From an uncultured Pseudomonadota bacterium (GTDB lineage Bacteria; Pseudomonadota; Alphaproteobacteria; JACZXZ01), in contig CAVVLJ010000017.1 of the NCBI GenBank assembly GCA_963749075.1, positions 512,001-576,000 of the forward strand: a stretch of DNA of 64,000 nt. Reading direction: 5' to 3'. The position numbers were made by a program, and so were the translations under genes. Below, one piece after another: positions 14,032 through 59,591 of the stretch (position 1 is its first letter; each line of letters opens with the position of its first letter). The notes under the pieces were generated by a model. It worked only from the letters and a program-made list of their open reading frames with translations. It made no database searches and was not told where the DNA came from.

Positions 14032-14045
14032 TTGATGCAAATCAA
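14032..14045. promoter_or_regulatory. FNR/FixK box upstream of glk
   Basis: Perfect TTGAT-GCAA-ATCAA. Confidence 0.85.
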
Positions 14046-44051: not shown

Positions 44052-45050
44052 TCAGCGGCTCATGCTGAAGCCCTGCAGGATCTTGATATAATTTGCCCGC
44101 TCGAAGGAGGCCGGGTGCGCCACCGTGCGCTGGCTCATGCGCCCGCGTATGGGATCGAGCGTCTCGAGGTTGCGCGCCGCGAGCCAGCTCTCGAGACCGT
44201 CGCGCAATACCTTCATATGGGCGACGCCGTGCCGCAGGAGGGCGGAGGTGGTCATCACGACGTCGGCGCCGGCGAGGAGGTACTTGACGACCTCGTCGAC
44301 GCTCTCCACGCCGGTGCTCGCCGCGAGCGACGCCTTGAGGCGTCCCGCCAGCACGCCGATCCAGAGCAGCGGCAGGCGGATCTCGGAAGACGTGCTCAAT
44401 TCGAGGTCCGAGCGCAGCTCGAGCCGCGCGAGGTCGATGTCGGGCTGATAGAACCTGTTGAACAGGACCAGGCCGTCGGCGCCGGCTTGATCGAGCTCGA
44501 GCGCCATGTGGCCGATCGCGCTGAAATAGGGCCCGAGCTTGACCGCGACCGGGATCGCGACGGCGCGCTTCACGGCGCCCAGGATGTCCTTGTAGCGGCG
44601 CTCGACCTCGCGTCCGCTCATGTCGAGATTGGCCGGAATGAAGTAGACGTTGAGCTCGAGCGCGCTCGCGCCTGCCTCCTCGATCTGCCGGGCATAATCG
44701 ACCCAGCCGTGATCGGTGACGCCGTTGAGGCTGGCAATGACCGGCATGTCGACCGCCTTGGCGGCGCGGTGCACGAGCTCGAGGTACGGTCCCGGACCGT
44801 TCGGGTACGAGACGGCCGCCGGGAAATAGCTCAGCGCCTCCGGGAAACTGTCCGTCCCCGTCGTGACCAGGCGCTCGAGCAGTTCCGCCTCGCGCTCGAT
44901 CTGCTCCTCGAAGATCGAGGGCAGCACGACGGCGCCGGCGCCGAGCTCCTCCAGACGCCGGATGTTGTCCAGCTCGCCGGTGAGCGGCCCGGCGCTGGCC
45001 ACGAGCGGGCTCTTGAGCCTGAGGCCGAGATAACGCGTCGTCAGATCCAT
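44052..45050 (-). CDS. Dihydroorotate dehydrogenase-like FMN protein
   Basis: MDLTTRYLGLRLKSPLVASAGP, ELNVY, VAVKLGP, LFNRFYQPD, ERANY. Confidence 0.88.
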   Translation of the reverse strand: MDLTTRYLGLRLKSPLVASAGPLTGELDNIRRLEELGAGAVVLPSIFEEQIEREAELLERLVTTGTDSFPEALSYFPAAVSYPNGPGPYLELVHRAAKAVDMPVIASLNGVTDHGWVDYARQIEEAGASALELNVYFIPANLDMSGREVERRYKDILGAVKRAVAIPVAVKLGPYFSAIGHMALELDQAGADGLVLFNRFYQPDIDLARLELRSDLELSTSSEIRLPLLWIGVLAGRLKASLAASTGVESVDEVVKYLLAGADVVMTTSALLRHGVAHMKVLRDGLESWLAARNLETLDPIRGRMSQRTVAHPASFERANYIKILQGFSMSR

Positions 45051-45087
45051 GGCTGCGATCCTCTTCTGCTTCCTTGCGCCGCCGCCT

Positions 45088-48681
<3,594 letters not shown>

Positions 48682-48810
48682 CTCGGTTCTTCCCCTCCGG
48701 CTCGGGCATCATCTCGATGGCGTGGCGTGGACACCGCTCGGTCGGGCCGCTTCCCGGCGCGCCGTCCGTGCCGTGCGGCAGTATGAGACCATGTCGCCCG
48801 CCTGTGCACT

Positions 48811-48824
48811 TTGATCTAGATTAA
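48811..48824. promoter_or_regulatory. FNR/FixK box upstream of nifJ
   Basis: TTGAT-CTAG-ATTAA. Confidence 0.7.
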
Positions 48825-49012: not shown

Positions 49013-49026
49013 TTGACCAGGATCAA
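49013..49026. promoter_or_regulatory. FNR/FixK box upstream of the OYE gene
   Basis: TTGAC-CAGG-ATCAA. Confidence 0.8.
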
Positions 49027-49133
49027 GACGGCTCGCCCTGGAGCGCTTCATCTTGCATGGTCGGGCGATCGAGCATGGGCGGCGGGCCGTTCACCCGCCC
49101 CCTTCCGGGTGCCGGCGCGAGGGAGAGACGACA

Positions 49134-50264
49134 TTGGGCGGCAGGATCGAGAAGAGAGAGGCGCCGAGCGATCTTTTCGAGCCGGTGCGGCTGGGGCCGT
49201 ATCAACTTGCGAACCGCGTCGTCATGGCGCCGTTGACGCGCAGCCGCGCCGGCGAAGACGGCGTCCCACGGCCCTTGATGGCCGAATATTACGCCCAGCG
49301 CGCCTCGGCCGGGCTGATCGTCACGGAGGGCGTCAACATCTCGCCGCAGGGGAGAGGCTACGCCCTGACGCCGGGCCTCTATGACGACGCCCAGATCGAG
49401 GGATGGCGGCAGGTGACCGCGGCCGTCCATACCCGCGGCGGCCGCATCTTTCCGCAGCTCTGGCATGTCGGGCGCGTGTCGCATCCTTCGCTGCAGCCCG
49501 GCGGCGCCCTGCCCGTCGCCCCTTCGGCGATCCGCCCGGAGGCCACGTCCTATACCGCGGCCGGTTTCCAGCCCTGCGCGACGCCCCGCGCGCTCGCCAC
49601 GGCCGAAATCCCCGAGATCGTCGGGCAGTACCGCCGCGCGGCGCGAAACGCCCTCGCCGCCGGCTTCGACGGCGTGGAGATCCATGCGGCCAACGGCTAT
49701 CTCATCGAGCAGTTCCTGCGCGACAGCACGAACAAGCGGACCGACAGCTATGGCGGGCCGCCCGAGAACCGCGCGCGCCTCCTGCTCGAGGTGACGGAGG
49801 CCGTGGCCGGCGTCTGGGGCGGCGCGCGCGTCGGCGTCCGCCTTTCGCCGCTCAGCCCGGTCAATGGCGCCGCCCTCGACAGCGACCCCGCCGGGACCTA
49901 CAGCCATGTCGTCGAGTGGCTGAACGCGTTCGGGCTGGCCTACATCCACATCATCGAGGGAGCGACCCAGGGGCCGCGCGAGGTCCCGGGCGGCTTCGAT
50001 CTTCAGATTCTACGGCGATCGTTCAAGGCTCTCTATATCGCAAACAACGGCTACGACTTGGGGCTCGCCCACGAGGCGCGCCGCCGCAACCTCGCGGACC
50101 TCATCTCGTTCGGCCGGCTCTACATCGCCAACCCGGACCTCGTGGAGCGCTTGCGCACCGGCGCGCCGTTGAACGTTCCCGACCGCGCGAGCTACTTCGG
50201 CGGCGGTGCGGCCGGATACACCGACTATCCGGTCCTGACGCCGGCGGAACGCGACGCCGCCTAG
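49134..50264 (+). CDS. Old-yellow-enzyme alkene reductase (NemA/XenB-like); start uncertain
   Basis: NRVVMAPLTRSRA, QLWHVGRVSH, EIHAANGYL, NPDLV, GYTDYP. Confidence 0.92.
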   Translation: MGGRIEKREAPSDLFEPVRLGPYQLANRVVMAPLTRSRAGEDGVPRPLMAEYYAQRASAGLIVTEGVNISPQGRGYALTPGLYDDAQIEGWRQVTAAVHTRGGRIFPQLWHVGRVSHPSLQPGGALPVAPSAIRPEATSYTAAGFQPCATPRALATAEIPEIVGQYRRAARNALAAGFDGVEIHAANGYLIEQFLRDSTNKRTDSYGGPPENRARLLLEVTEAVAGVWGGARVGVRLSPLSPVNGAALDSDPAGTYSHVVEWLNAFGLAYIHIIEGATQGPREVPGGFDLQILRRSFKALYIANNGYDLGLAHEARRRNLADLISFGRLYIANPDLVERLRTGAPLNVPDRASYFGGGAAGYTDYPVLTPAERDAA

Positions 50265-50357: not shown

Positions 50358-52034
50358 TCAGGGCCGCGGCTCAGGCGCCCGGTCTGCAAGGGCGGCCGGC
50401 GGCAACGCGGCGGTTGGATTTCCCGCGCTTTCCCCGGAGCGATTGCCGCCGCGCCGCCAGCCGTCGATGGCCGCGAGCTCGGCTTGCGGCACTTCCGCGA
50501 TAATCTCCAGCCGGCCGAGCATGACCTCGCCGGTCTCGCCGTCGAGAGAAATCCAGCTTCCCTCCTCGATTTTCCTTCCGGCAATCTCGCCGCCGGATCC
50601 GCTCTCGCCGATTTTCAGATCGCGGCACCCGACCAGACAGACCTTGCCGAGCTGGCGTGCCACGACCGCGGCATGGGCGGTCCGCCCTCCGACCGCGGTC
50701 AAGATGCCGGCAGCCGCCGCGAAACCGCCCACATCATCGGTCGAGGTGTCGTGGCGCACGAGAATGACCGGTTCGTTCCCGGCCGCGAGCGCCTTGGCGC
50801 GGATGCTGTCGAAGGCGACGCGCCCGGTGGCGACGCCGGGAGACGCCGAGAGGGCGGTGGCGACCGCCGGAACCTTGTTGGCGAAGCGGGTCAAGCGGGT
50901 TCCCGCAAGGTCGATCTCGGCTGCGCGCGACAGCGCCGTCGCGCGATCGAGGAGGCCTTCATCGACGAAATCCACCAGAACGCGCAAGGCCGCCCGCGGC
51001 GTCCGTTTGGCCGAACGCGCCTGCAGGAAGAACAGCCTGCCGTTCTCCACCGTGAACTCGACGTCCTGGACGTCGCGGAATTCGCGCTCGAGGCGGGCGA
51101 CGCCCTCGGCGAGCTCCTTTGCCACCTGCGGAAGCCGGGCGGCAAGCAGATCACCGTTGCCCGGCATGCGCCGGCCGGCCACCACGTCCTCGCCTTGCGC
51201 ATCGACGAGAAAATCGACATAGAGCTCTTTCGCGCCGGTTGCCGGATTCCGCGAGAATGCGACGCCGGCACCGGACTTCCCGCCCGAGTTGCCGAAGACC
51301 ATGGCCTGAACGGTGACGGCGGTGCCGATGAGCCCGTCGAGCTTATTGAGACGACGGTACTCCTTGGCCCGCGGGTTGTCCCAGGAGCGATAAACGGCGC
51401 GCGCCGCGGCCTTGAGCTGCTCGATCGGGCTATCGGGAATCGCCCGGCCCGCCGCCTCGGCTGCCGCGGCACGAAACTCATGCGTCAGCCGCTCGAGCGC
51501 TTCCGAATCGAGATCGCCGTCGCTTTCAGCACCCTCCGATCGCATCATCTCCGCAGTGCGCGCCTCGAAGAGCGCCGACGCGGCGCCTTCGACGGTCTCG
51601 CAATAGTTCTGGATGAAGCGCCGATAGCTGTCCCAGGCGAGGCGGGGGTTGCCGGTCAGGCCGATCAAGCCGCGGACGCTCTCGGCATTGAGGCCCACAT
51701 CGAGAATCGTGTCCAGCATCCCGGGCATGGATTTTGCCGCACCCGAGCGCACCGAGACGAGGAGGGGCGCGCGGTCGCCGCCGAAACGGCGGGCGGTCGT
51801 CTCTTCCAAGCGGGCGATGCCGTCGCGCAGCCCTTGGTCGAGCGCCTCGAGGGCCTGTGCATCGCCCCGGTTGGCCGGCGCGCAGAGCTCGGTCGGCAAG
51901 ACGAAGGCAGGCGGCACGTTCAAGCCGAGCCTTTTCATTTGCCAGAGGCTGGCCGCCTTCGACCCGGCCAGCGCCGCCGTGATTTCGTCGCTTCGCCCAG
52001 CGGTGCCTATGTAAAGCGGCGCATAGCGGTTCAT
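50358..52034 (-). CDS. PPDK-like protein: ATP-grasp + phospho-His domains, no pyruvate/PEP barrel
   Basis: GSKAA, VPPAF, LLVSVRSGAAKSMPGMLDT, QAMVFGN, QGEDVVAG, DVEFTVENG.L..LQ.R, GGRTAHAAVVARQLG; ends after the swivel domain (558 aa). Confidence 0.85.
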   Translation of the reverse strand: MNRYAPLYIGTAGRSDEITAALAGSKAASLWQMKRLGLNVPPAFVLPTELCAPANRGDAQALEALDQGLRDGIARLEETTARRFGGDRAPLLVSVRSGAAKSMPGMLDTILDVGLNAESVRGLIGLTGNPRLAWDSYRRFIQNYCETVEGAASALFEARTAEMMRSEGAESDGDLDSEALERLTHEFRAAAAEAAGRAIPDSPIEQLKAAARAVYRSWDNPRAKEYRRLNKLDGLIGTAVTVQAMVFGNSGGKSGAGVAFSRNPATGAKELYVDFLVDAQGEDVVAGRRMPGNGDLLAARLPQVAKELAEGVARLEREFRDVQDVEFTVENGRLFFLQARSAKRTPRAALRVLVDFVDEGLLDRATALSRAAEIDLAGTRLTRFANKVPAVATALSASPGVATGRVAFDSIRAKALAAGNEPVILVRHDTSTDDVGGFAAAAGILTAVGGRTAHAAVVARQLGKVCLVGCRDLKIGESGSGGEIAGRKIEEGSWISLDGETGEVMLGRLEIIAEVPQAELAAIDGWRRGGNRSGESAGNPTAALPPAALADRAPEPRP

Positions 52035-53968
52035 GCCGACAACTCCTCGAGGACACGGTCTCTGAGAGCGAGAGCCGAATGAGACAGGTGATCGGTCGCG
52101 GTCTCGAGTACGCGCGCGATCTCAAGGGCGAGCACCAGCGGCCTCGCGTCGCCGCGAGGCACGGCCATGAGTGCCGCAAAGGCATCGCGCTCGGCCGTGT
52201 CGGCGCTGCGCTCCAGGTTCACCACCGCATCGAAGGCTTGCAGCGAGGCGACCGCATCGGCGCGCTGGCCCCTCGGCAGCCGCGATGCCGCCTCGACGGC
52301 GCGGACAAGCTCGCTCACGCTCTCGGTCACGATCTCGGAGAGCTCTGCCAGCGGCGCAACGGCGAGCACCGATGCGTCCTCTTCGGGCACGAGGCTCAGA
52401 AGGAAGGTGCAATCCTCCAACGAATCGGTCGTATTTTCGACCTCGTCGATCACCGGCCGCAGCATCCCGGCTTCGCGGATGCGGGCCGCCATTTCGCGCG
52501 CGGAGACGGTCTGACGATCCGCCTTCTCTTCGATTTTCTTGGCCCGGCGGGCGAGCGCGCGCCTCTCTGCCGGCGTCACGGAGGAAGGCGCCGAGAGAGC
52601 ATCGGAGATCGCCGCGGCGAGAATCCGCGTGAGCCCGAGATGGCGGACGAGCACCGTGAGGACGGAGCTTTCGGCCGTCTCGAACCGGCGCGACAGATCG
52701 GCCTGGATCTCGTCGCGAATGAGCCGCGCGGTGCGCCCGGCGGAGAGCCCCTGGCTGGTGTCGCGCAGAACCCGCTCGAGGAATTCCCTGCATGCGGTGG
52801 CACCCAGCGCCTCGTCGAGCCGCACGCCATAGGGAATGCGCCCCGCCGCGGCACGCTGCACCGCGTCGAAGATCAGATCGGCGCCGCCAAGATCGAGAAA
52901 GGCCCGGTGTCCGAGATCGCGTGCGGCGGCCCACTTGAGCAGATCGACCGCGGCGTTCTTGCCGACGAACGTCTGGAGCGCCTTTCGCGCCTTGTTCCAG
53001 TCGATCAAAAAGACGATGCGCGACCCGAGAAACTCGAGGAAGCGCTCGACCGCACCATCGCCATCGGAGACGTAACGCCCCGTCAAAAGGTAGAAGACAT
53101 CCTCGTCGAGCCCGGCCGCCGATTTCTCGGCAAGAGGGCTCCAGCCAACGCCCTGGCCTTCGAAGAGCGCTATGAAGAATTTGGCGCGCGGCCGGTGGGT
53201 GTCGGTGTAGGTGACGGTCACCGCCTGATCCTCGACATGGACGACCAGCACATGGGCATCCGTGGTCCCGATGTCGTTCTGGATCGTCAGTCGTCCGCCG
53301 GCCCGGACCGCCGTCGTGCCGAGCCCGGGGTGACCGAAGGCCAGAGGTGCCGTGCGGTTGAGCCCCCGCATGAACGCCTTCACCCGTACGCGGTCGCGCT
53401 CGTCGATGCGATGCACGCGCGCCCCATCGAGAGTTTCGAGCGCCGTATCCGCGGCGAGCCGGTTGAGCGCCTTGTGGATATCCATGACGAGGCCGTGAAC
53501 GCTGTCCCGGCCGGCGCGGCCGGCTGACGTGAGGTCATCGATGTCGCGGAAATCGAGCTGATCGCGCTCGCCCGCGGGAAGGCATCTTGTCAATGCCTCC
53601 GCCCTCGCGACGAGGGATCGGCTGGCTTCGCCGTCGGCCGCCTCCAGGGGGGCCAGCATGAGCGAGAGATCGGCCGCGGCACCAGCGAGCAATTCGCTGG
53701 CGCCCGGAATGAACAAGCGCGTCGGGCCGAGTGCCCTGGCACCGGAGACCAGCGAGTCGAGCCCCGGCGCATCGAGACGGGCGGCCTGCCGCTCCGCGCG
53801 GAAGAGACGCGGCTTGCGGTTGGGGTCTTGCGCTTGCAACGCGGCTTCTTGCAGAAGACTGAGGCGGAGCTTGATGCGGTCGTTGGCGGCAAGCGCATCC
53901 CCGATGAGCGAAGGCAGCAGAACGGCCTTCTCCCCTAAACGCTCCATCACTTTGGCTTTGGTTGTCAT
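52031..53968 (-). CDS. Large protein with C-terminal DUF47/PhoU-like helical domain
   Basis: AKKIEEKAD, E...D.LED, LERSAD..ER, LE.ATD acidic repeats; N-terminal MDIHKALNRL and IQNDIGTTDAHV; ATGA overlap with the PPDK-like gene. Confidence 0.65.
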   Translation of the reverse strand: MTTKAKVMERLGEKAVLLPSLIGDALAANDRIKLRLSLLQEAALQAQDPNRKPRLFRAERQAARLDAPGLDSLVSGARALGPTRLFIPGASELLAGAAADLSLMLAPLEAADGEASRSLVARAEALTRCLPAGERDQLDFRDIDDLTSAGRAGRDSVHGLVMDIHKALNRLAADTALETLDGARVHRIDERDRVRVKAFMRGLNRTAPLAFGHPGLGTTAVRAGGRLTIQNDIGTTDAHVLVVHVEDQAVTVTYTDTHRPRAKFFIALFEGQGVGWSPLAEKSAAGLDEDVFYLLTGRYVSDGDGAVERFLEFLGSRIVFLIDWNKARKALQTFVGKNAAVDLLKWAAARDLGHRAFLDLGGADLIFDAVQRAAAGRIPYGVRLDEALGATACREFLERVLRDTSQGLSAGRTARLIRDEIQADLSRRFETAESSVLTVLVRHLGLTRILAAAISDALSAPSSVTPAERRALARRAKKIEEKADRQTVSAREMAARIREAGMLRPVIDEVENTTDSLEDCTFLLSLVPEEDASVLAVAPLAELSEIVTESVSELVRAVEAASRLPRGQRADAVASLQAFDAVVNLERSADTAERDAFAALMAVPRGDARPLVLALEIARVLETATDHLSHSALALRDRVLEELSA

Positions 53969-54036
53969 GACCACCCTCGCCCGCCCGCCGCCCCATGGCC
54001 GACGCGCCATTAGGGCAAGAAATCGCCGCGCATGCC

Positions 54037-54050
54037 TTGCGCTAGATCAT
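54037..54050. promoter_or_regulatory. Degenerate FNR/FixK box upstream of the DUF47-PPDK operon
   Basis: TTGCG-CTAG-ATCAT, 69 bp from the start, similar to the spacing of several strong boxes. Confidence 0.45.
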
Positions 54051-54284
54051 TCATGGAAGTGTCATGACCCTATTGCGTTACAGTGGCAGCCCCGGCTTTT
54101 GCCCCGTGAGGCTGAAAGGATCGGGCGGGGCGCCGGTGGAAATTCACCAGGCGAAAAGGCCGCCCGCTCGGCGGAGAAAACTCGCCTGCGGCAACGTCAT
54201 GCCGGCAACGCCACGCCGATGGCCGACGGACTGCCGCCCTGCGGGCGAGCCACTCGCTTTTACGCGTAGCCGGCAGTAATCGCT

Positions 54285-54407
54285 TCAAGGCTTGGTCTCG
54301 CCGCGCAAACGTCGGACGTGGTCCTCGAGCTGCCGACGCGCCGCGCCGAGGGCGTCGCGTATCGCGACATGAACGTCCTCATGGGCGTGGCGATCCCGGT
54401 GCAGGTC
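54285..54407 (-). pseudogene. HPF/RaiA ribosome-hibernation factor fragment
   Basis: HAHEDVHVAIRDALGAARRQLEDHVRRLRGETKP* resembles the HPF C-terminal helix; no start or N-terminal part. Confidence 0.65.
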
Positions 54408-54712
54408 TATGCGTGGCTTCCGGACGGCTCGATCCAGCCGCCGCACAGCTCGGGATTGCTCCGGCAATGCTCGATGAAATGGCGGAGGACAAGCTTCAAC
54501 TGCGCCGCGTGACGAAAATCGCGGCGGCCGCGCGCCGCTTCGATATCGTCGCGGATGATCGCCTTGATCGCCTGCTGGCCGCCCGGGCAATGGACGAGGT
54601 AACAGCCGAGCGAGGCCGCAATCACCTCCGGGCGATGCTCGTGCTCGGCGATGGCATCGATCTCTTCCCGGGTGAGATCGCTCAAAGCGATGCAGTCCTC
54701 GAGCGTCAACAT
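54407..54712 (-). CDS. Small hypothetical protein
   Basis: GGAG RBS; MLTLEDCIALSDLTREEIDAIAEHEH..EVIAA.LG.YL. Confidence 0.75.
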   Translation of the reverse strand: MLTLEDCIALSDLTREEIDAIAEHEHRPEVIAASLGCYLVHCPGGQQAIKAIIRDDIEAARGRRDFRHAAQLKLVLRHFIEHCRSNPELCGGWIEPSGSHA

Positions 54713-54774
54713 CGACATCTCCAACGAAAGAGCCTGCCTCGATGGTAGGATCGCAGGCATCTCGCCCGAGTGCC

Positions 54775-54788
54775 TTGACATAGATCAG
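54775..54788. promoter_or_regulatory. FNR/FixK box between divergent genes
   Basis: TTGAC-ATAG-ATCAG. Confidence 0.7.
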
Positions 54789-54881
54789 CTGGCGAGCTGA
54801 GTTTACCCGCCAAGCTTGCGAAGCCGCATCGCCGAGTTGGCTTTCTTTGCGCTCCGCATGCGGGCCTGGCGGAGGCGGGCG

Positions 54882-56012
54882 ATGACCGACAAGAACCCGG
54901 CCGAGCGCTATCGCGCCAACCTGCAAGGCGAAATCGACAGCGCCTCGCTCTACCGCGCCCTGGCCGAGGTCGAGGGCGACCCGCAGATCGCCAAGGTCTA
55001 CGGCCGGCTCGCCGCGGTCGAGGAGGCCCACGCCTCCTTCTGGCAGAAGCGCCTCGAGGCGCTCGGCAAGCGGCTTCCCCGGCTGCGTCCCGGCTTCCGC
55101 CCCAAGGCGCTGGCGTGGCTCGCGCGGCGCTTCGGGCCGGGCTTCATTCTGCCGGCGATCAACACGCTCGAGCGCATGGACAGCGGCCATTACGACGCCC
55201 AGCCCGAAGCCGTGGCGGGCGGGCTGCCGCAGGCCGAGCGCAGCCACGCGCGCATCCTCCAGGCGATTGCCGGCGACGCCCCGGGGGCGATCACGGGGAG
55301 CACGCTGGCGCGGCTCGAGGGCCGCCACCGCGGGCTCGGCGGGAACGCGCTGCGCGCCGCCGTGCTCGGCGCCAACGACGGGCTCCTCTCCAACCTGAGC
55401 CTGGTCATGGGGGTCTCGGGCGCGGCGCTCGACCGCCATGCGGTTCTCATCACCGGGCTTGCGGGGCTCCTGGCCGGCGCCTGCTCGATGGCGCTCGGCG
55501 AGTGGCTCTCGGTGACGAGCTCGCGCGAATCCTATCAGCGCCAGATCGGCAAGGAGGCCTCCGAGCTCGCCGAGGTGCCCGACGAGGAGAAGGAGGAGCT
55601 CATCCTCATCTACCAGTCGAAAGGGCTCGGCGAGACCGAGGCGCGTGCCTTGGCCGAGCGGCTCATGGCCGACAAGTCGACGGCGCTCGACACGCTGGTG
55701 CGCGAGGAGCTCGGCATCGACCCGTCCGAGCTCGGCGGCTCGGCCTGGACGGCGGGCGCCACGTCGTTCCTCCTCTTCGCCACGGGTGCCGTCTTCCCCG
55801 TGGTGCCCTTCTTCTTCGCCGGAGGAGAGCGCGCGGTGGCAGCGAGCCTGGCGCTCTCCGGCCTCGCCCTCTTCGCGATCGGCGGCGGCACCAGCCTCTT
55901 CACCGGCCGCGGCGTGCTCCTCTCCGGCGTGCGTCAGCTGCTCGTCGGCCTGGCCGCGGCCGGCGTCACCTACGGCCTCGGCCGGCTCATCGGCGCGGCG
56001 CTCGGGGGATGA
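54882..56012 (+). CDS. VIT1/CCC1 iron transporter with N-terminal ferritin/rubrerythrin-like domain
   Basis: E.DS..LY..LA, EEAH, ERSH; LRAAVLGANDGLLS, GACSMALGEWLSV, REELGIDP. Confidence 0.9.
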   Translation: MTDKNPAERYRANLQGEIDSASLYRALAEVEGDPQIAKVYGRLAAVEEAHASFWQKRLEALGKRLPRLRPGFRPKALAWLARRFGPGFILPAINTLERMDSGHYDAQPEAVAGGLPQAERSHARILQAIAGDAPGAITGSTLARLEGRHRGLGGNALRAAVLGANDGLLSNLSLVMGVSGAALDRHAVLITGLAGLLAGACSMALGEWLSVTSSRESYQRQIGKEASELAEVPDEEKEELILIYQSKGLGETEARALAERLMADKSTALDTLVREELGIDPSELGGSAWTAGATSFLLFATGAVFPVVPFFFAGGERAVAASLALSGLALFAIGGGTSLFTGRGVLLSGVRQLLVGLAAAGVTYGLGRLIGAALGG

Positions 56013-56034
56013 GCCGGGTGCCGGCGCCGGGCGC

Positions 56035-56063
56035 TTGCCATGCACGGCCGCTTGGCGTATCTC
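56035..56063 (+). promoter_or_regulatory. Putative sigma70 promoter of the tRNA
   Basis: TTGCCA-N17-TATCTC. Confidence 0.45.
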
Positions 56064-56187: not shown

Positions 56188-56880
56188 CTAATCCGGCGCG
56201 CGCAAGCGGTAGCCGACGCCCGTCTCGGTCAGGAGGTACTGCGGCCGCGCCGGCTCGCGCTCGAGCTTGTGGCGCAGGCTGCGCACATAGACGCGCAAAT
56301 ATTGCACGTCCTCCACGTGCGCCGGCCCCCACACCTCGCGCAGGATGAACTCGTGGGTGAGCACGCGCCCGGCCTGGGTCACGAGCAGGCGCAGGAGATC
56401 GAATTCCTTGGCGGAGAGCCTGACCTCCTCGCCCTCGAGCATCACGTGGCGGCGCACGAGGTCGACGGTGAGCGCGCCGCACTTGTAGACCGGGGGCGCG
56501 CCCTGCTCCTGGAAGCGCCGCCGGAGCGCCGTGCGCAGGCGCGCGTTGAGCTCCTCCATGCCGAAGGGCTTGGTGATGTAATCGTCGGCGCCGAGATCGA
56601 GCGCCTGCACCTTGCCGCGCTCGTCGCCGCGCGCGGAGAGCACCAGGATGGGCATCGCGGAGAGCCGGCGGATGCGCTGGATGACCTCGAGGCCCTCCAT
56701 GTCGGGCAGACCGAGATCGAGGATGACGAGGTCGGGCTTTTGCAGCACCACCGCGTCGACCGCGTCGCCGCCGGTTTCCGCGACGCTGACCTCGTATCCC
56801 TCGGCCTTGAGCCCGGCATCGAGGAAGCGGCGGATCGCCTTCTCGTCGTCGACCACGAGGATGCGGTGGGCCTTGCTCAT
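56188..56880 (-). CDS. kdpE: KdpE response regulator
   Basis: ILDLGLPDMEG, KVQALDLGADDYITKPF, YLRVYVRSLRHKLE, TETGVGYR. Confidence 0.95.
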   Translation of the reverse strand: MSKAHRILVVDDEKAIRRFLDAGLKAEGYEVSVAETGGDAVDAVVLQKPDLVILDLGLPDMEGLEVIQRIRRLSAMPILVLSARGDERGKVQALDLGADDYITKPFGMEELNARLRTALRRRFQEQGAPPVYKCGALTVDLVRRHVMLEGEEVRLSAKEFDLLRLLVTQAGRVLTHEFILREVWGPAHVEDVQYLRVYVRSLRHKLEREPARPQYLLTETGVGYRLRAPD

Positions 56881-59591
56881 GCCGGTGCCGCCGCGTCGCG
56901 CGCTTCCGCCGGCTGCGGCGCCAGGGGGAGGGCGATGGTGAAGACCGCACCCGAGCGGTCGGCGCGGTTGGCGGCGCGCACCGTGCCGCCCGACGCCTCG
57001 ACGAAGCCGCGGCAGATGGCGAGGCCGAGCCCCGTTCCCGCCGGGCGGTGGTCGCCGTCTGTGACCCGGTAGAACTTGTCGAAGATGCGCTCGAGCTGGC
57101 CCTCCGGAATGCCGGGCCCCTCGTCGGCGACCTCGAGCCTGAGCGTCTCCTCGTCGCGGCGCGCCGAGACGCGGACGAGCGAGCCCGGCGGCGCGTATTT
57201 CGCCGCGTTGTCGAGGAGATTGAAGAGCGCCTGGTCGAGCAGCAGCGCATCGCCCGCCACCATCGGCAGATCGGGAGCGATCTCGACCTCGACGCGGTGG
57301 TGCTGGAGCAGCCGCCCCGCACGCCTCAAGGCGGTCTCGACCAGCTCGCCCGCCTCGAGCATCTCGCACTTCGGCTGAAGCGCGCCCAACTCGAGCCGCG
57401 TCACGTCGAGGAGATTGCCCACGAAACGGTTGAGGCGCTCGGCCTCGTCCTCGATCGTGGCGATGAGCTCCTCCTTGACGCGCGGCTCCGCCGCCTCCTT
57501 GAGCGTGCGCAAGGCGGTGACCGAGCCGATGATCGAGGCGAGCGGCGTGCGCAAATCGTGCGAGATCGAGGTGAGGAGCGTCGAGCGCAGGCGCTCCGCC
57601 TCGGCCGCCACGCGCGCCTCGTCGATGTCGCCTGCGAGCCGCACCCGCTCGATGGCCACGGCTATGAGATCGGAGAGCGCGTCGAGGAGGCGGCGCTCGT
57701 CGGGCGTGAGGATCGGCCCCGGACGGTCGCGGTCGAGGCCGAGCACGCCGATGATGCCGCGCCCGGTGCGCATGGGGAGAAAGAGGCGGCGGGCGCCCGG
57801 CAGCGTGTCCGAGGCGCGGCCGGCCGCCTGATTGTGCGACCAGGTCCATTTGGCGGCGGCGAGGTCGGCCTCGTCGAGCTCGTCCTCGGGCGGATAGCCG
57901 GCGCGCACGGCGATCTGGCCCTTCTCCGGGAGGAGGACCACGATGCGCAGCTTGAGGAGGGCTGCCACCTGGTAGCAGAAGGCCCACAAGAGGTCGTCGA
58001 GATTGCCCGTCGCCGCGAGCTTGCGGCTGAAGGCATAGAGCTCGGCGGTGTCCTTGGCGCGGCGCTGGGCGGTGAGGACCTGCTCGCGCGTGCGCGCCGT
58101 CAAGTTGCTCGTCAGCACGGCGACGATGCCGAAGAAGAGGAGCGCCATGACATTCGCCGGATCGGAGATCGTGAAGGTATAGAGCGGCGGCAGGAAGAAG
58201 AAATTATAGGCGAGCACGCTCAAGAGCACGGCGAAGAGCGAGGGCAGGAGGCCATAGGCGACCGCGGTGAAGAGGATGGCGGCGAGATAGACGAGCGAGA
58301 GGTTGGGCAGCCGCACGAAATGGTCGATGGCGAGGCCGATGAGCGTTGCGGCGGCCGTAGTGCCGGCGGCGACCAGATAGGGCAGCAGGTCGACCGGCTC
58401 GCCGGCGGCACGCGTGGTGACGTTCTTCGGCGGGATGGGCTGACCCTCGCCGGTCACCACCTCGACGCCGATGTTGTTGGCCTTGCGGATGAGCTCGCCC
58501 GGCACCGAGCCGCGCAGTATCTCGCTTACGCGCGAGCGCCGGGGTTTCCCCACGAGCACGCGCGTGACGTTGTTGGCCCGGGCGTAGGCGAGCACGTCGT
58601 CGGCGACGCTGCGGCCGGGGACGGTGAGCGCCTCGCCGCCCAGCCGCTCGGCCAGACGCAGCGTATCGGCGATGCGGTCGCGCTCGACCTCCGAGAGGCG
58701 GTGATGCCGCGAGGTCTCGATGTAGAGCACGCCCCACTTGGCCTTGAGCTGGTCGGCCACCCGCCGCGCCTGGCGCACCACTTGCGCGGACGCCGGGCTC
58801 TCGCTCACGCAGGCGAGCACGCGCTCGCCCGCGGCCCACGGGCCGCTGATGGCGTGCGCCTGCATGTAGCTCAGCATCTGCTCGTCGACGCGCTGGGCGG
58901 CGCGCCGCAAGGCGAGCTCGCGGAGTGCCGTGAGGTTGCCCGGCGAGAAGTAATGCTTGAGGGCGCGCTGCGCCTGGTGGGGGACGTAGACCTTGCCCTC
59001 CTTCAGGCGCTGCGTGAGGTCCTCCGGCGTGAGATCGACGACCTCGATCTCGCCGGCCTGGTCGATCACGCTGTCCGGAATGGTCTCGCGCACGCGGATG
59101 CGCGTGATCTGCGCCACCACGTCGTTCAGGCTCTCGAGGTGCTGGATGTTGAGCGTCGAATAGACGTCGATGCCGGCGGCGAGCAGCTCGGCCACGTCCA
59201 TGTGGCGCTTGGGATGGCGCGAGCCGGGAGCGTTCGAATGGGCGAGCTCGTCGACCAGCACGAGCTGGGGCGAGCGCTTGAGCACGGCGTCGAGATCCAT
59301 CTCCTCGAGGATATGGCCGCGGTACTCGACACGGCGGCGCGGGATGATCTCGAGCCCGCGCAAGAGGCGCTCCGTCTCGACGCGGCCGTGGGTCTCGACC
59401 ACGCCGACGACCGCGTCGACCCCCTCGCGCCGGCGCTGCGCCGCGGCGAGCAGCATCTCGTAGGTCTTGCCGACGCCGGGTGCGGCGCCGAGGAAGATCT
59501 TGAGCTTGCCGCGCCGCTCCTCCTTCGCGGCCGCGAGCAGGGCTTCCGGCGACGGGCGATGGTGGTACTCGCTCCCGTTCGGCTGGACCAT
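56877..59591 (-). CDS. kdpD: KdpD sensor kinase
   Basis: RGKLKIFLGAAPGVGKTYEML, VDELAHSN, USP domain, 4 TM, GAF, SHDLRTPL, GTGLGLAIC. Confidence 0.97.
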   Translation of the reverse strand: MVQPNGSEYHHRPSPEALLAAAKEERRGKLKIFLGAAPGVGKTYEMLLAAAQRRREGVDAVVGVVETHGRVETERLLRGLEIIPRRRVEYRGHILEEMDLDAVLKRSPQLVLVDELAHSNAPGSRHPKRHMDVAELLAAGIDVYSTLNIQHLESLNDVVAQITRIRVRETIPDSVIDQAGEIEVVDLTPEDLTQRLKEGKVYVPHQAQRALKHYFSPGNLTALRELALRRAAQRVDEQMLSYMQAHAISGPWAAGERVLACVSESPASAQVVRQARRVADQLKAKWGVLYIETSRHHRLSEVERDRIADTLRLAERLGGEALTVPGRSVADDVLAYARANNVTRVLVGKPRRSRVSEILRGSVPGELIRKANNIGVEVVTGEGQPIPPKNVTTRAAGEPVDLLPYLVAAGTTAAATLIGLAIDHFVRLPNLSLVYLAAILFTAVAYGLLPSLFAVLLSVLAYNFFFLPPLYTFTISDPANVMALLFFGIVAVLTSNLTARTREQVLTAQRRAKDTAELYAFSRKLAATGNLDDLLWAFCYQVAALLKLRIVVLLPEKGQIAVRAGYPPEDELDEADLAAAKWTWSHNQAAGRASDTLPGARRLFLPMRTGRGIIGVLGLDRDRPGPILTPDERRLLDALSDLIAVAIERVRLAGDIDEARVAAEAERLRSTLLTSISHDLRTPLASIIGSVTALRTLKEAAEPRVKEELIATIEDEAERLNRFVGNLLDVTRLELGALQPKCEMLEAGELVETALRRAGRLLQHHRVEVEIAPDLPMVAGDALLLDQALFNLLDNAAKYAPPGSLVRVSARRDEETLRLEVADEGPGIPEGQLERIFDKFYRVTDGDHRPAGTGLGLAICRGFVEASGGTVRAANRADRSGAVFTIALPLAPQPAEARDAAAPA

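Follow-up and report, generated by a model that had tools for sequence, protein, structure and literature searches.

A barrel-less pyruvate, phosphate dikinase paralogue paired with a DUF47/PhoU-like protein: a candidate two-subunit dikinase in an uncultured alphaproteobacterium

In a 64,000-nucleotide stretch of the genome of an uncultured bacterium of the class Alphaproteobacteria (assembly GCA_963749075.1, contig CAVVLJ010000017.1, positions 512,001 to 576,000 of the forward strand), hereafter called the window, a gene encoding a shortened paralogue of pyruvate, phosphate dikinase (PPDK) of 558 amino acids (aa) directly follows a gene encoding a 645-aa protein with a C-terminus of the DUF47/PhoU type, and these two genes very probably form an obligate functional pair. 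Regarding what such a pair does, the best explanation is a two-subunit dikinase in which the 645-aa partner supplies the acceptor site in trans, a reading held here with about as much belief as doubt. The conservation of the pair, the overlap of the two genes, their natural fusion and the PhoU-like end of the partner all fit a partner acting in trans with a phosphohistidine domain.

The frame of the 558-aa protein is free of internal stops, and in Pfam the protein matches PPDK_N (PF01326, E 2.5e-39) as well as the swivel domain, there called PEP-utilizers mobile domain (PF00391, E 2.4e-21), with no match to PEP-utilizers_C (PF02896), the barrel by which canonical PPDKs bind phosphoenolpyruvate (PEP) or pyruvate. 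TIGR01828, the profile of canonical PPDK, covers it only at profile positions 13-516 of 865 and with a score of 545 bits, below the cut-off of 843.45, while NF041857, used for the comparison with rifampin phosphotransferase and glucan, water dikinase, matches the swivel region only (28.6 bits for a cut-off of 999). The motifs of the nucleotide site, namely GxK26, VSVRSGAxxSMPGM, RR138-139, QD324xE326FT and LQ338xR340, together with the T-x-H of the swivel domain, are invariant in 32 family members and common to seven canonical PPDKs. Both Thr452, at the position of the regulatory Thr of PPDK, and His454 are thus kept in 32/32 members. Besides lacking PF02896 and always being paired with the 645-aa protein, the short form differs from canonical PPDK in having GGRTAH for GGMTSH and ARQLG for ARGMG. 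A preliminary description of this DNA, made from its letters alone, had already noted the ATP-grasp motifs, the swivel His, the regulatory Thr and the lack of a frameshift, all of which are borne out by the Pfam matches, the motifs and the open frame.

Conservation of the protein runs to about residue 527 and is followed by a variable tail, the frame ending some 30 aa later; likewise, in 75/75 evaluable genome loci a stop is reached shortly past the last conserved column. The 120 best-matching homologues of this protein measure 435-583 aa and carry PF01326 and PF00391 only, so that a local truncation, of which full-length closest homologues had been proposed as the sign, is not what is seen. 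Considering this consistent shortness, the intact motifs and the full-length 896-aa PPDK kept in the same genome (44% identical to the short form over residues 20-534), the short gene appears as a specialised paralogue and not a remnant. The gene for the PPDK regulatory protein (PF03618) is present in this genome too. PADLOC matched neither the short PPDK nor its partner. One apparent long form, at locus L013 with 401 extra aa, was rejected, as a normal stop occurs there after about 560 aa and the extra frame is devoid of any Pfam domain.

The linkage of the two genes was followed across two sets of loci. When genome loci were fetched via the partner, a short PPDK stood directly downstream on the same strand in 79/80 of them, the sole miss (L070) being a locus that ends inside the partner at the end of a contig. 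When metagenome loci were fetched with an alignment of distant partners, the short PPDK came next in 72/72 of those offering at least 300 nucleotides (nt) downstream, the other 8 of these 80 loci having no downstream room and not being evaluable. The latter partners are 35-43% identical to that of the window, and the GC content of their loci ranges from 34 to 70%. Scoring of co-occurrence, which the preliminary description had put forward as a test of the pair, therefore comes out in its favour in both sets. An in-frame open NTGA overlap of start and stop, 4 nt long, is found in 74/79 genome loci; in the window, the junction reads GCATGAACC, where the start (ATG) of the short PPDK overlaps the stop (TGA) of the upstream partner gene by four bases. 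The identities of the partners and of the short PPDKs to the respective copies in the window correlate with each other (r = 0.89). Over the 80 genome and 80 metagenome loci, conservation does not extend to any third gene; the most frequent neighbour cluster after the pair itself occurs in 10 of the 80 genome loci. The pair also exists as natural fusions, i.e., 34 protein clusters of 1183-1243 aa with PF01326 and PF00391 in all and PF01865 in 25 of them; the domain order, checked on three fused proteins, is partner, PPDK_N and swivel in one chain. One fused cluster comprises five 1205-aa members originating from NCBI, JGI and ENA, and the fused forms bearing an organism name are from Solirubrobacteraceae.

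From its first ATG, the frame of the partner would encode 659 aa (52031-54010 on the minus strand). The start of the 645-aa form (52031-53968) is preferred because the relatives are 645 aa long and begin with MTTKAK, because GAGGG stands ahead of the ATG at 53968 and because the earlier ATG falls within the likely -10 box. The 645-aa length and the ATGA overlap given in the preliminary description are confirmed by the start of the relatives, the GAGGG and the junction sequence.

The partner divides into two parts. Its N-terminal region, residues 1-412, has no match in Pfam, NCBIfam or the PDB, and a local ACT-like match over 83 columns is a lead only. Searches of the PDB by sequence gave no match with a single sequence and a best E of 0.23 with a profile. 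Modelled alone, this region reached a predicted local distance difference test (pLDDT) of 84.9, while the AlphaFold2 model of the whole partner, built from 32 sequences, had a pLDDT of 86.2 and a predicted template modelling score of 0.73. The motif QNDIGTTDAH, which had caught the eye in the preliminary description, is indeed present at residues 230-239, and further motifs of this region are FGHPGLG, TYTDxHRxR, FLIDWNKARK and GHRAF. In 21 sequences 28-44% identical to the first sequence of their alignment, 48 columns of the partner are invariant, including six His as well as the motifs HPG, N..G....H, D.H..R, DWN..R and GH. The invariant His of the N-terminal region are His158, His165, His213, His239, His258 and His354, and they are accompanied by many invariant Arg, Asp and Asn. 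Judged by alignment, such a density of invariant polar residues looks as expected of an active site.

The C-terminal part, from about residue 413 to 645, consists of long helices for which Foldseek returned 3l39, 2iiu and 2olt with a probability of 1.00 and template modelling (TM) scores on the target of 0.68-0.75; the PhoU structures 1t72 and 4q25 match this bundle as well, the TM scores on the target spanning 0.44-0.75 over all matches and the E-values being only 3e-3 to 0.2. PF01865 is above its cut-off of 24.4 bits in the distant relatives P0184, P0183 and P0208 (26.4, 27.0 and 34.7 bits, respectively), and 7/32 close relatives match it at E up to 1. The DUF47/PhoU-like character first ascribed to this end of the partner is thus supported via the PF01865 of its relatives and via the fold, and not by a Pfam match of its own. 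Acidic pairs of the E/DxxxD type, namely E483/D487, D518/E521 and E590/D594 (numbered as in the first row of the partner alignment A4), show little or no variation among 21 divergent sequences. Some sources name the partner "phosphate transport regulator." While a typical DUF47 protein is of a single domain of about 205-215 aa, usually tied to a Pit transporter, the partner adds a 412-residue N-terminal region and is tied to a kinase.

Respective to known systems, the view expressed in the preliminary description that a barrel-less architecture is novel was overstated, since both a truncated PPDK, VadK (PMC13400623), and a two-component dikinase, HpeHI (PMC12167813), have been published. VadK (Rv1127c) of Mycobacterium tuberculosis autophosphorylates on His422 with adenosine triphosphate (ATP) and Mg2+ and is required for growth on propionate and cholesterol as well as for virulence (PMC13400623, 2026); the portion of this report that was available describes VadK only from Actinobacteria and mentions neither DUF47 nor PhoU. 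Like the protein of the window, VadK has an ATP-grasp and a swivel His with no PEP/pyruvate barrel, and it has a tightly binding operonic neighbour, Rv1126c, just as the short PPDK of the window has its operonic 645-aa partner (PMC13400623). By analogy, the protein of the window would be expected to autophosphorylate on the swivel His454. The protein of the window, though, falls in another clade than the VadK-type (NF004531/PRK05878) sequence of the tree, and the VadK-type neighbours are unrelated to the partner. Against NF004531, the 558-aa protein scores 449.9 bits, narrowly under the curated cut-off of 456, with 404.7 and 413.7 bits for two other partnered members and 784.8 bits for a true member. 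In a maximum-likelihood tree of 28 rows (one VadK-type row, none from M. tuberculosis, with deeper branching left unresolved), 14 partnered and 2 fused forms make up one clade (support 100/100) apart from the NF004531 member, three other actinobacterial short forms with different gene surroundings and seven full-length PPDKs. Over the 160 loci, no methylcitrate-cycle or Rv1126c-like neighbour is conserved by the window-type pair, only the 645-aa partner.

HpeHI of Rhodococcus is a dikinase of two polypeptides where the swivel His shuttles between sites, HpeI being an ATP-grasp alone and HpeH a swivel plus a substrate-binding domain (PMC12167813). The pair of the window is cut differently, with ATP-grasp and swivel kept together and the candidate acceptor part on a separate, unrelated protein bearing a PhoU-like bundle. 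Phenylphosphate synthase is likewise a two-component dikinase acting on a small molecule. Rifampin phosphotransferase and glucan, water dikinase reuse the ATP-grasp and swivel His with other acceptor domains (PMC4844700, PMC13553574) but, unlike the pair of the window, are single polypeptides with known acceptor domains. Among the open-access papers searched, none was found combining a PPDK or dikinase with DUF47 or PhoU, or describing the pair. The pair is thus regarded as a lineage of its own among the barrel-less PPDKs, whose partner is new, obligate and in part of no recognised fold.

As a two-subunit dikinase, the pair would operate in three steps, i.e., (i) the 558-aa paralogue would bind ATP in its ATP-grasp and phosphorylate the swivel His454, as its motifs and the precedent of VadK, the distant relative for which alone this was demonstrated in vitro, suggest, (ii) the swivel domain would carry the phosphoryl to a site on the 645-aa partner, which would replace the third domain in trans, and (iii) the phosphoryl would pass to an acceptor not encoded next door. 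The delivery to the partner is argued for by the obligate pairing, the fusion and the missing barrel. The acceptor site might be provided by the invariant His, Arg, Asp and Asn of the N-terminal region, by the E/DxxxD sites of the PhoU-like bundle, which are of metal type, or by both. As to the acceptor itself, a phosphate-type or phosphorylated small molecule such as inorganic phosphate (Pi), pyrophosphate (PPi), polyphosphate or something similar may be guessed from the PhoU-like domain and from the polyphosphate genes recurring beside the pair.

Regarding these genes, the commonest Pfam families among the nearest upstream open reading frames (ORFs) of 122 dereplicated loci were CHAD (6), CYTH (6) and YdjM (5), with Ppx-GppA_III at 2, and the commonest among 109 nearest downstream ORFs was PPK2 (4). 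By tblastn with seeds from the genome of the window, PPK2, CYTH-CHAD or Ppx were found in the flanks of 16/160 loci, both sides and both strands being counted (26-35% identity to the seed from L017 for the CYTH-CHAD copies). This genome has 7 such polyphosphate genes in 5.49 Mb, from which about 1.3% of 10-kb flanks would hold one by chance versus the 10% seen, a comparison between loci that are not independent and a background of a single genome. These neighbours hint, but no more than hint, at a chemistry of polyphosphate or phosphate, which would agree both with the PhoU-like domain and with the use of Pi and PPi by PPDK, and a phosphate or polyphosphate context of the pair is best considered tentative, with doubt outweighing belief. 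Outside the window, on the same contig at 681-698 kb and about 115 kb from the pair, PPK2, a Ppx/GppA in a 507-aa frame and a CHAD protein are grouped in a span of 17 kb, in what looks like a polyphosphate gene neighbourhood.

In a narrower form of the two-subunit dikinase, considered unlikely, the pair would be an inorganic-phosphate dikinase, where ATP would yield His454~P, Pi being turned into PPi as in PPDK, and the phosphoryl would be discharged onto Pi, PPi or a polyphosphate chain held on the metal sites of the PhoU-like bundle and by the N-terminal domain. With adenosine monophosphate (AMP) as the other product, this would amount overall to ATP + Pi + (P)n <-> AMP + PPi + (P)n+1. If true, the pair would represent a hitherto undescribed class of enzyme, coupling adenylate charge to PPi and polyphosphate by a third route besides PPK1 and PPK2, and would give a PhoU/DUF47-type domain its first catalytic role.

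Several observations weigh against the two-subunit dikinase and have to be set beside it. PhoU-type proteins are known as regulators and not as enzymes, which favours regulatory explanations. The partner of the window has itself no match in Pfam or NCBIfam, and the best Foldseek match of its residues 1-412 in the PDB has an E of 0.095 with TM below 0.25; with no structural relative for the N-terminal domain, conservation is the one ground for calling this domain "acceptor-binding." As many as 144/160 loci are without a polyphosphate neighbour, and the polyphosphate genes of the genome of the window are more than 115 kb from the pair, none being beside it. Lastly, the published reading of VadK is that of a kinase which regulates other enzymes, and not that of a dikinase of small molecules (PMC13400623).

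Partners belong to a large and scattered family, for which clustering at 50% identity gives 1111 clusters when E is up to 1e-3 and 313 when E is up to 1e-30. Carriers are known among Alphaproteobacteria, Betaproteobacteria and Solirubrobacteraceae and include one or more archaeal metagenome-assembled genomes, and one relative of the partner is labelled Methanomethylovorans. Cultured, non-pathogenic carriers include Methylocella silvestris, Xanthobacter autotrophicus, Acidocella aromatica, Reyranella soli and Tistlia consotensis. Within the class, the partner is present in 10/401 sampled genomes and 6/307 genera, and one genome of the same genus is without it. Plasmid-borne copies occur in Methylocella tundrae and in Aquabacterium olei, a member of the Betaproteobacteria. 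The sparse distribution and the plasmid copies fit a mobile accessory module.

Among the alternatives, a regulatory phosphorelay survives best and retains a real, if minor, share of belief. Here, the short PPDK would be a VadK-like histidine kinase reading ATP, AMP, Pi and PPi, and the phosphoryl would go to a His or Asp of the partner, the PhoU-like domain of which would modulate phosphate homeostasis, e.g., through transporters, PhoR-type kinases or polyphosphate enzymes. Such an output would suit the six invariant His of the partner and its PhoU/DUF47 fold, the PhoU/DUF47 families being known as regulators of phosphate transport and signalling. It would suit the recurrence of polyphosphate genes near the pair, the lack of a conserved third gene, which an output directed at housekeeping proteins would predict, and the description of VadK as a regulatory kinase (PMC13400623). 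However, Pfam and NCBIfam scans found no receiver, HPt, HPr or DNA-binding domain in the pair, the invariant Arg, Asp, Asn and Trp around the His resemble, in our judgement, a substrate pocket more than a single phospho-acceptor site, and so patchy a distribution is unusual for a regulator of a universal process.

The partner could also stand off the phosphoryl path, as a regulator, scaffold or stabiliser in the manner of PhoU acting on PhoR/PstB, while the kinase phosphorylates other proteins or metabolites. This proposal is improbable, more so than the phosphorelay, although VadK needed co-expression of Rv1126c for solubility and 2 M NaCl was required to separate the two (PMC13400623), and although strict co-occurrence and fusion are equally expected of a regulatory subunit. 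Indeed, the phosphorelay and a partner off the path fit the co-occurrence data equally well. Some 48 invariant polar positions in 645 aa at 28-44% identity are, though, far beyond what a scaffold needs, and the genes flanking a bona fide NF004531-type gene show no relationship with the partner (hhalign probabilities of 0.8% and 0.1%), so that the resemblance of Rv1126c to the partner is one of analogy and not of homology.

Far less credible is a canonical PPDK split in two, with the barrel supplied by another gene and PEP still made or used, since none of the four PF02896 matches of the genome (one in a 263-aa open frame), which alone would allow for it, is near the pair, the 160 loci have no conserved barrel gene next to it, a complete 896-aa PPDK is already encoded, and the conserved and fused partner is a DUF47-type protein and not a barrel. 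A decaying PPDK remnant lying by chance beside an unrelated gene deserves next to no credence, with nothing but the missing domain in its favour and against it the shortness of the frame in 75/75 evaluable genome loci, invariant catalytic motifs, adjacency in 151/151 evaluable loci and a partner family of 1111 clusters.

Other barrel-less or unusual PPDK-like genes were encountered along the way. A second plasmid record of M. tundrae (LR536451, H16/H43) shows a partner match over residues 170-446 only, with "hypothetical protein (x2)" beside the short PPDK, and the partner there may be broken or mis-called. On plasmids of Rhodococcus and Streptomyces (L088, L091, L092 and L099), barrel-less PPDK-like genes encoding 527-593 aa occur in other contexts, one adjoining a stand-alone 122-aa "PEP-utilizing enzyme" and a DUF7065 protein, one in a biotin carboxylase/carboxyltransferase cluster and one after the gene of a small putative regulator. 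The loss of the barrel in PPDK-like proteins thus seems to have been exploited several times. On plasmid RPME01 of Methylibium petroleiphilum (L093), genes for microcompartment shell proteins (EutM, EutN/CcmL, BMC domain) surround that of a "pyruvate, phosphate dikinase" of 844 aa, and this last protein groups loosely with the NF004531-type short form in the tree.

Upstream of the pair lies a conserved, operon-specific element (Table 1), its core containing the box that the preliminary description had called a weak FixK box and used to link the pair to hypoxia. Weak is accurate, as the box (54037-54050) differs at 3/10 positions from the FixK/FNR consensus TTGAT-N4-ATCAA, and about 63 such sites are expected per window by chance (114 sites with up to three mismatches versus 62.8 expected, 114 being reached in 0/100 shuffles). 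The link to hypoxia is unsupported, considering these three mismatches and a right half that is CGCAA and not ATCAA in 23/23 loci keeping TGAYYYRGCGCAA; CGCAA may be an NnrR-type half-site. True FixK/FNR sites of the window look near-consensus, as judged from 11 sites with 0-1 mismatch (14032-14045, 14082, 17067, 18044, 24337, 30010, 38197, 38295, 48811, 49013 and 63813), and this richness in FNR/FixK-type boxes suggests a region of a low-oxygen regulon. Two of these boxes, with one mismatch each (48811-48824 and 49013-49026), stand just before the OYE-family gene at 49053-50264 on the plus strand.

The core TGAYYYRGCGCAA sits 62-85 nt before the start of the partner in 23/75 upstream regions (74 genome loci and the window), and 22/25 of its occurrences in 1.9 Mb of loci, both strands considered, are at that place; it was not found in 76 distant metagenome loci. 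The element has a single exact copy in the genome, and the 36 sites at two mismatches (the reversed control has 3) have the appearance of coding sequence. Measured from its centre, the 14-mer is 41.5 nt before the transcription start inferred from CCTAAT, a spacing from which the geometry of class II CRP/FNR-type activation may be inferred, and a dedicated regulator of the CRP/FNR family is plausible for the pair. Two ATGA-type words (54059-54065 and 54048-54054 on the minus strand) lie 11 nt apart (ATGACAC N4 ATGAATG) just ahead of the conserved box, and many related loci keep them too; read from the opposite strand, these words agree at 11/14 positions with a Pho box (consensus CTGTCAT-N4-CTGTCAT). 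Over the upstream regions, the Pho-box pattern beats 40/40 scrambled direct repeats (mean best mismatch of 4.14 versus 5.45) and the FNR pattern beats 38/40 scrambled palindromes. Since both patterns overlap one element and the Pho-like repeats run opposite to the gene strand, neither a Pho nor an FNR regulator is claimed. Over 53800-54900, Rfam returned no leader RNA family, with one match at chance level (E 0.89).

Table 1. Features of the paired genes and of their upstream region (positions in the window)
Feature	Position	Strand	Description and basis
Short PPDK paralogue P0001	50358..52034	(-)	558 aa; ATP-grasp and phosphohistidine swivel, no PEP/pyruvate barrel
Swivel domain (PEP-utilizers mobile)	50529..50777	(-)	Residues 420-502; Pfam
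GGRTAHAAVV motif	50661..50690	(-)	Residues 449-458, with Thr452 and His454
His454 codon	50673-50675	(-)	Predicted phosphocarrier
ATP-grasp nucleotide-binding region	50910..51983	(-)	Residues ~18-375; profile matches and conserved motifs
Start/stop overlap ATGA, partner to short PPDK	52031..52034	(-)	Junction sequence; translational coupling
Partner gene P0003	52031..53968	(-)	645 aa, start MTTKAK
Partner C-terminal DUF47/PhoU-like helical bundle	52034..52732	(-)	Residues ~413-645; Pfam match of relatives and fold
Partner N-terminal region	52733..53968	(-)	Residues 1-412, mixed alpha/beta; models and alignments
Motif IQNDIGTTDAHV	53252-53281	(-)	In partner N-terminal region
Putative -10 hexamer CCTAAT	54009..54014	(-)	Inferred; related loci have CTAAT/TGAAT-like words at equivalent distances
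Conserved upstream element ATGACAC-N4-ATGAATGATCTAGCGCAAGGC	54034..54065	(-)	Conserved in related loci
Element core TGAYYYRGCGCAA		(-)	Contains the box of the preliminary description (54037-54050)

As for the surroundings, the pair is convergent with the OYE-type gene, which encodes an NADH:flavin oxidoreductase (PF00724, E 5e-81), and divergent from a gene at 54816-56012 on the plus strand, the product of which has a ferritin-like N-terminus (Rubrerythrin/COQ7-type) fused to a VIT1/CCC1 iron-transporter domain (PF01988, E 6e-68). Over the latter gene, a 586-aa minus-strand ORF (54285-56045) has no real Pfam match and is probably a shadow. Farther upstream of the pair, at 56188-59591 on the minus strand, come kdpD (KdpD, Usp, DUF4118, GAF, HisKA and HATPase domains) and then kdpE, the latter recognised as a receiver and Trans_reg_C in the last 225 residues of the ORF 56188-57987. 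Two long ORFs overlap on opposite strands, i.e., 45049-48786 (plus, 1245 aa) and 45088-48681 (minus, 1197 aa), the plus-strand one being without a Pfam match.

In databases, the short protein is labelled "pyruvate, phosphate dikinase" or "PEP/pyruvate-binding domain-containing protein," and as it is without the barrel by which canonical PPDKs bind PEP and pyruvate, metabolic reconstructions counting the short form as a PPDK are wrong. The pair offers a clean and self-contained system in which to ask to what new tasks a phosphohistidine swivel domain can be turned, and a first way into the function of a 412-residue domain for which no fold is recognised; it possibly gives a biochemical activity to the long-enigmatic PhoU/DUF47 fold. 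The work on VadK indicates that truncated PPDKs can matter physiologically (PMC13400623), and the lineage of the window is a separate clade of such proteins with a different obligate partner.

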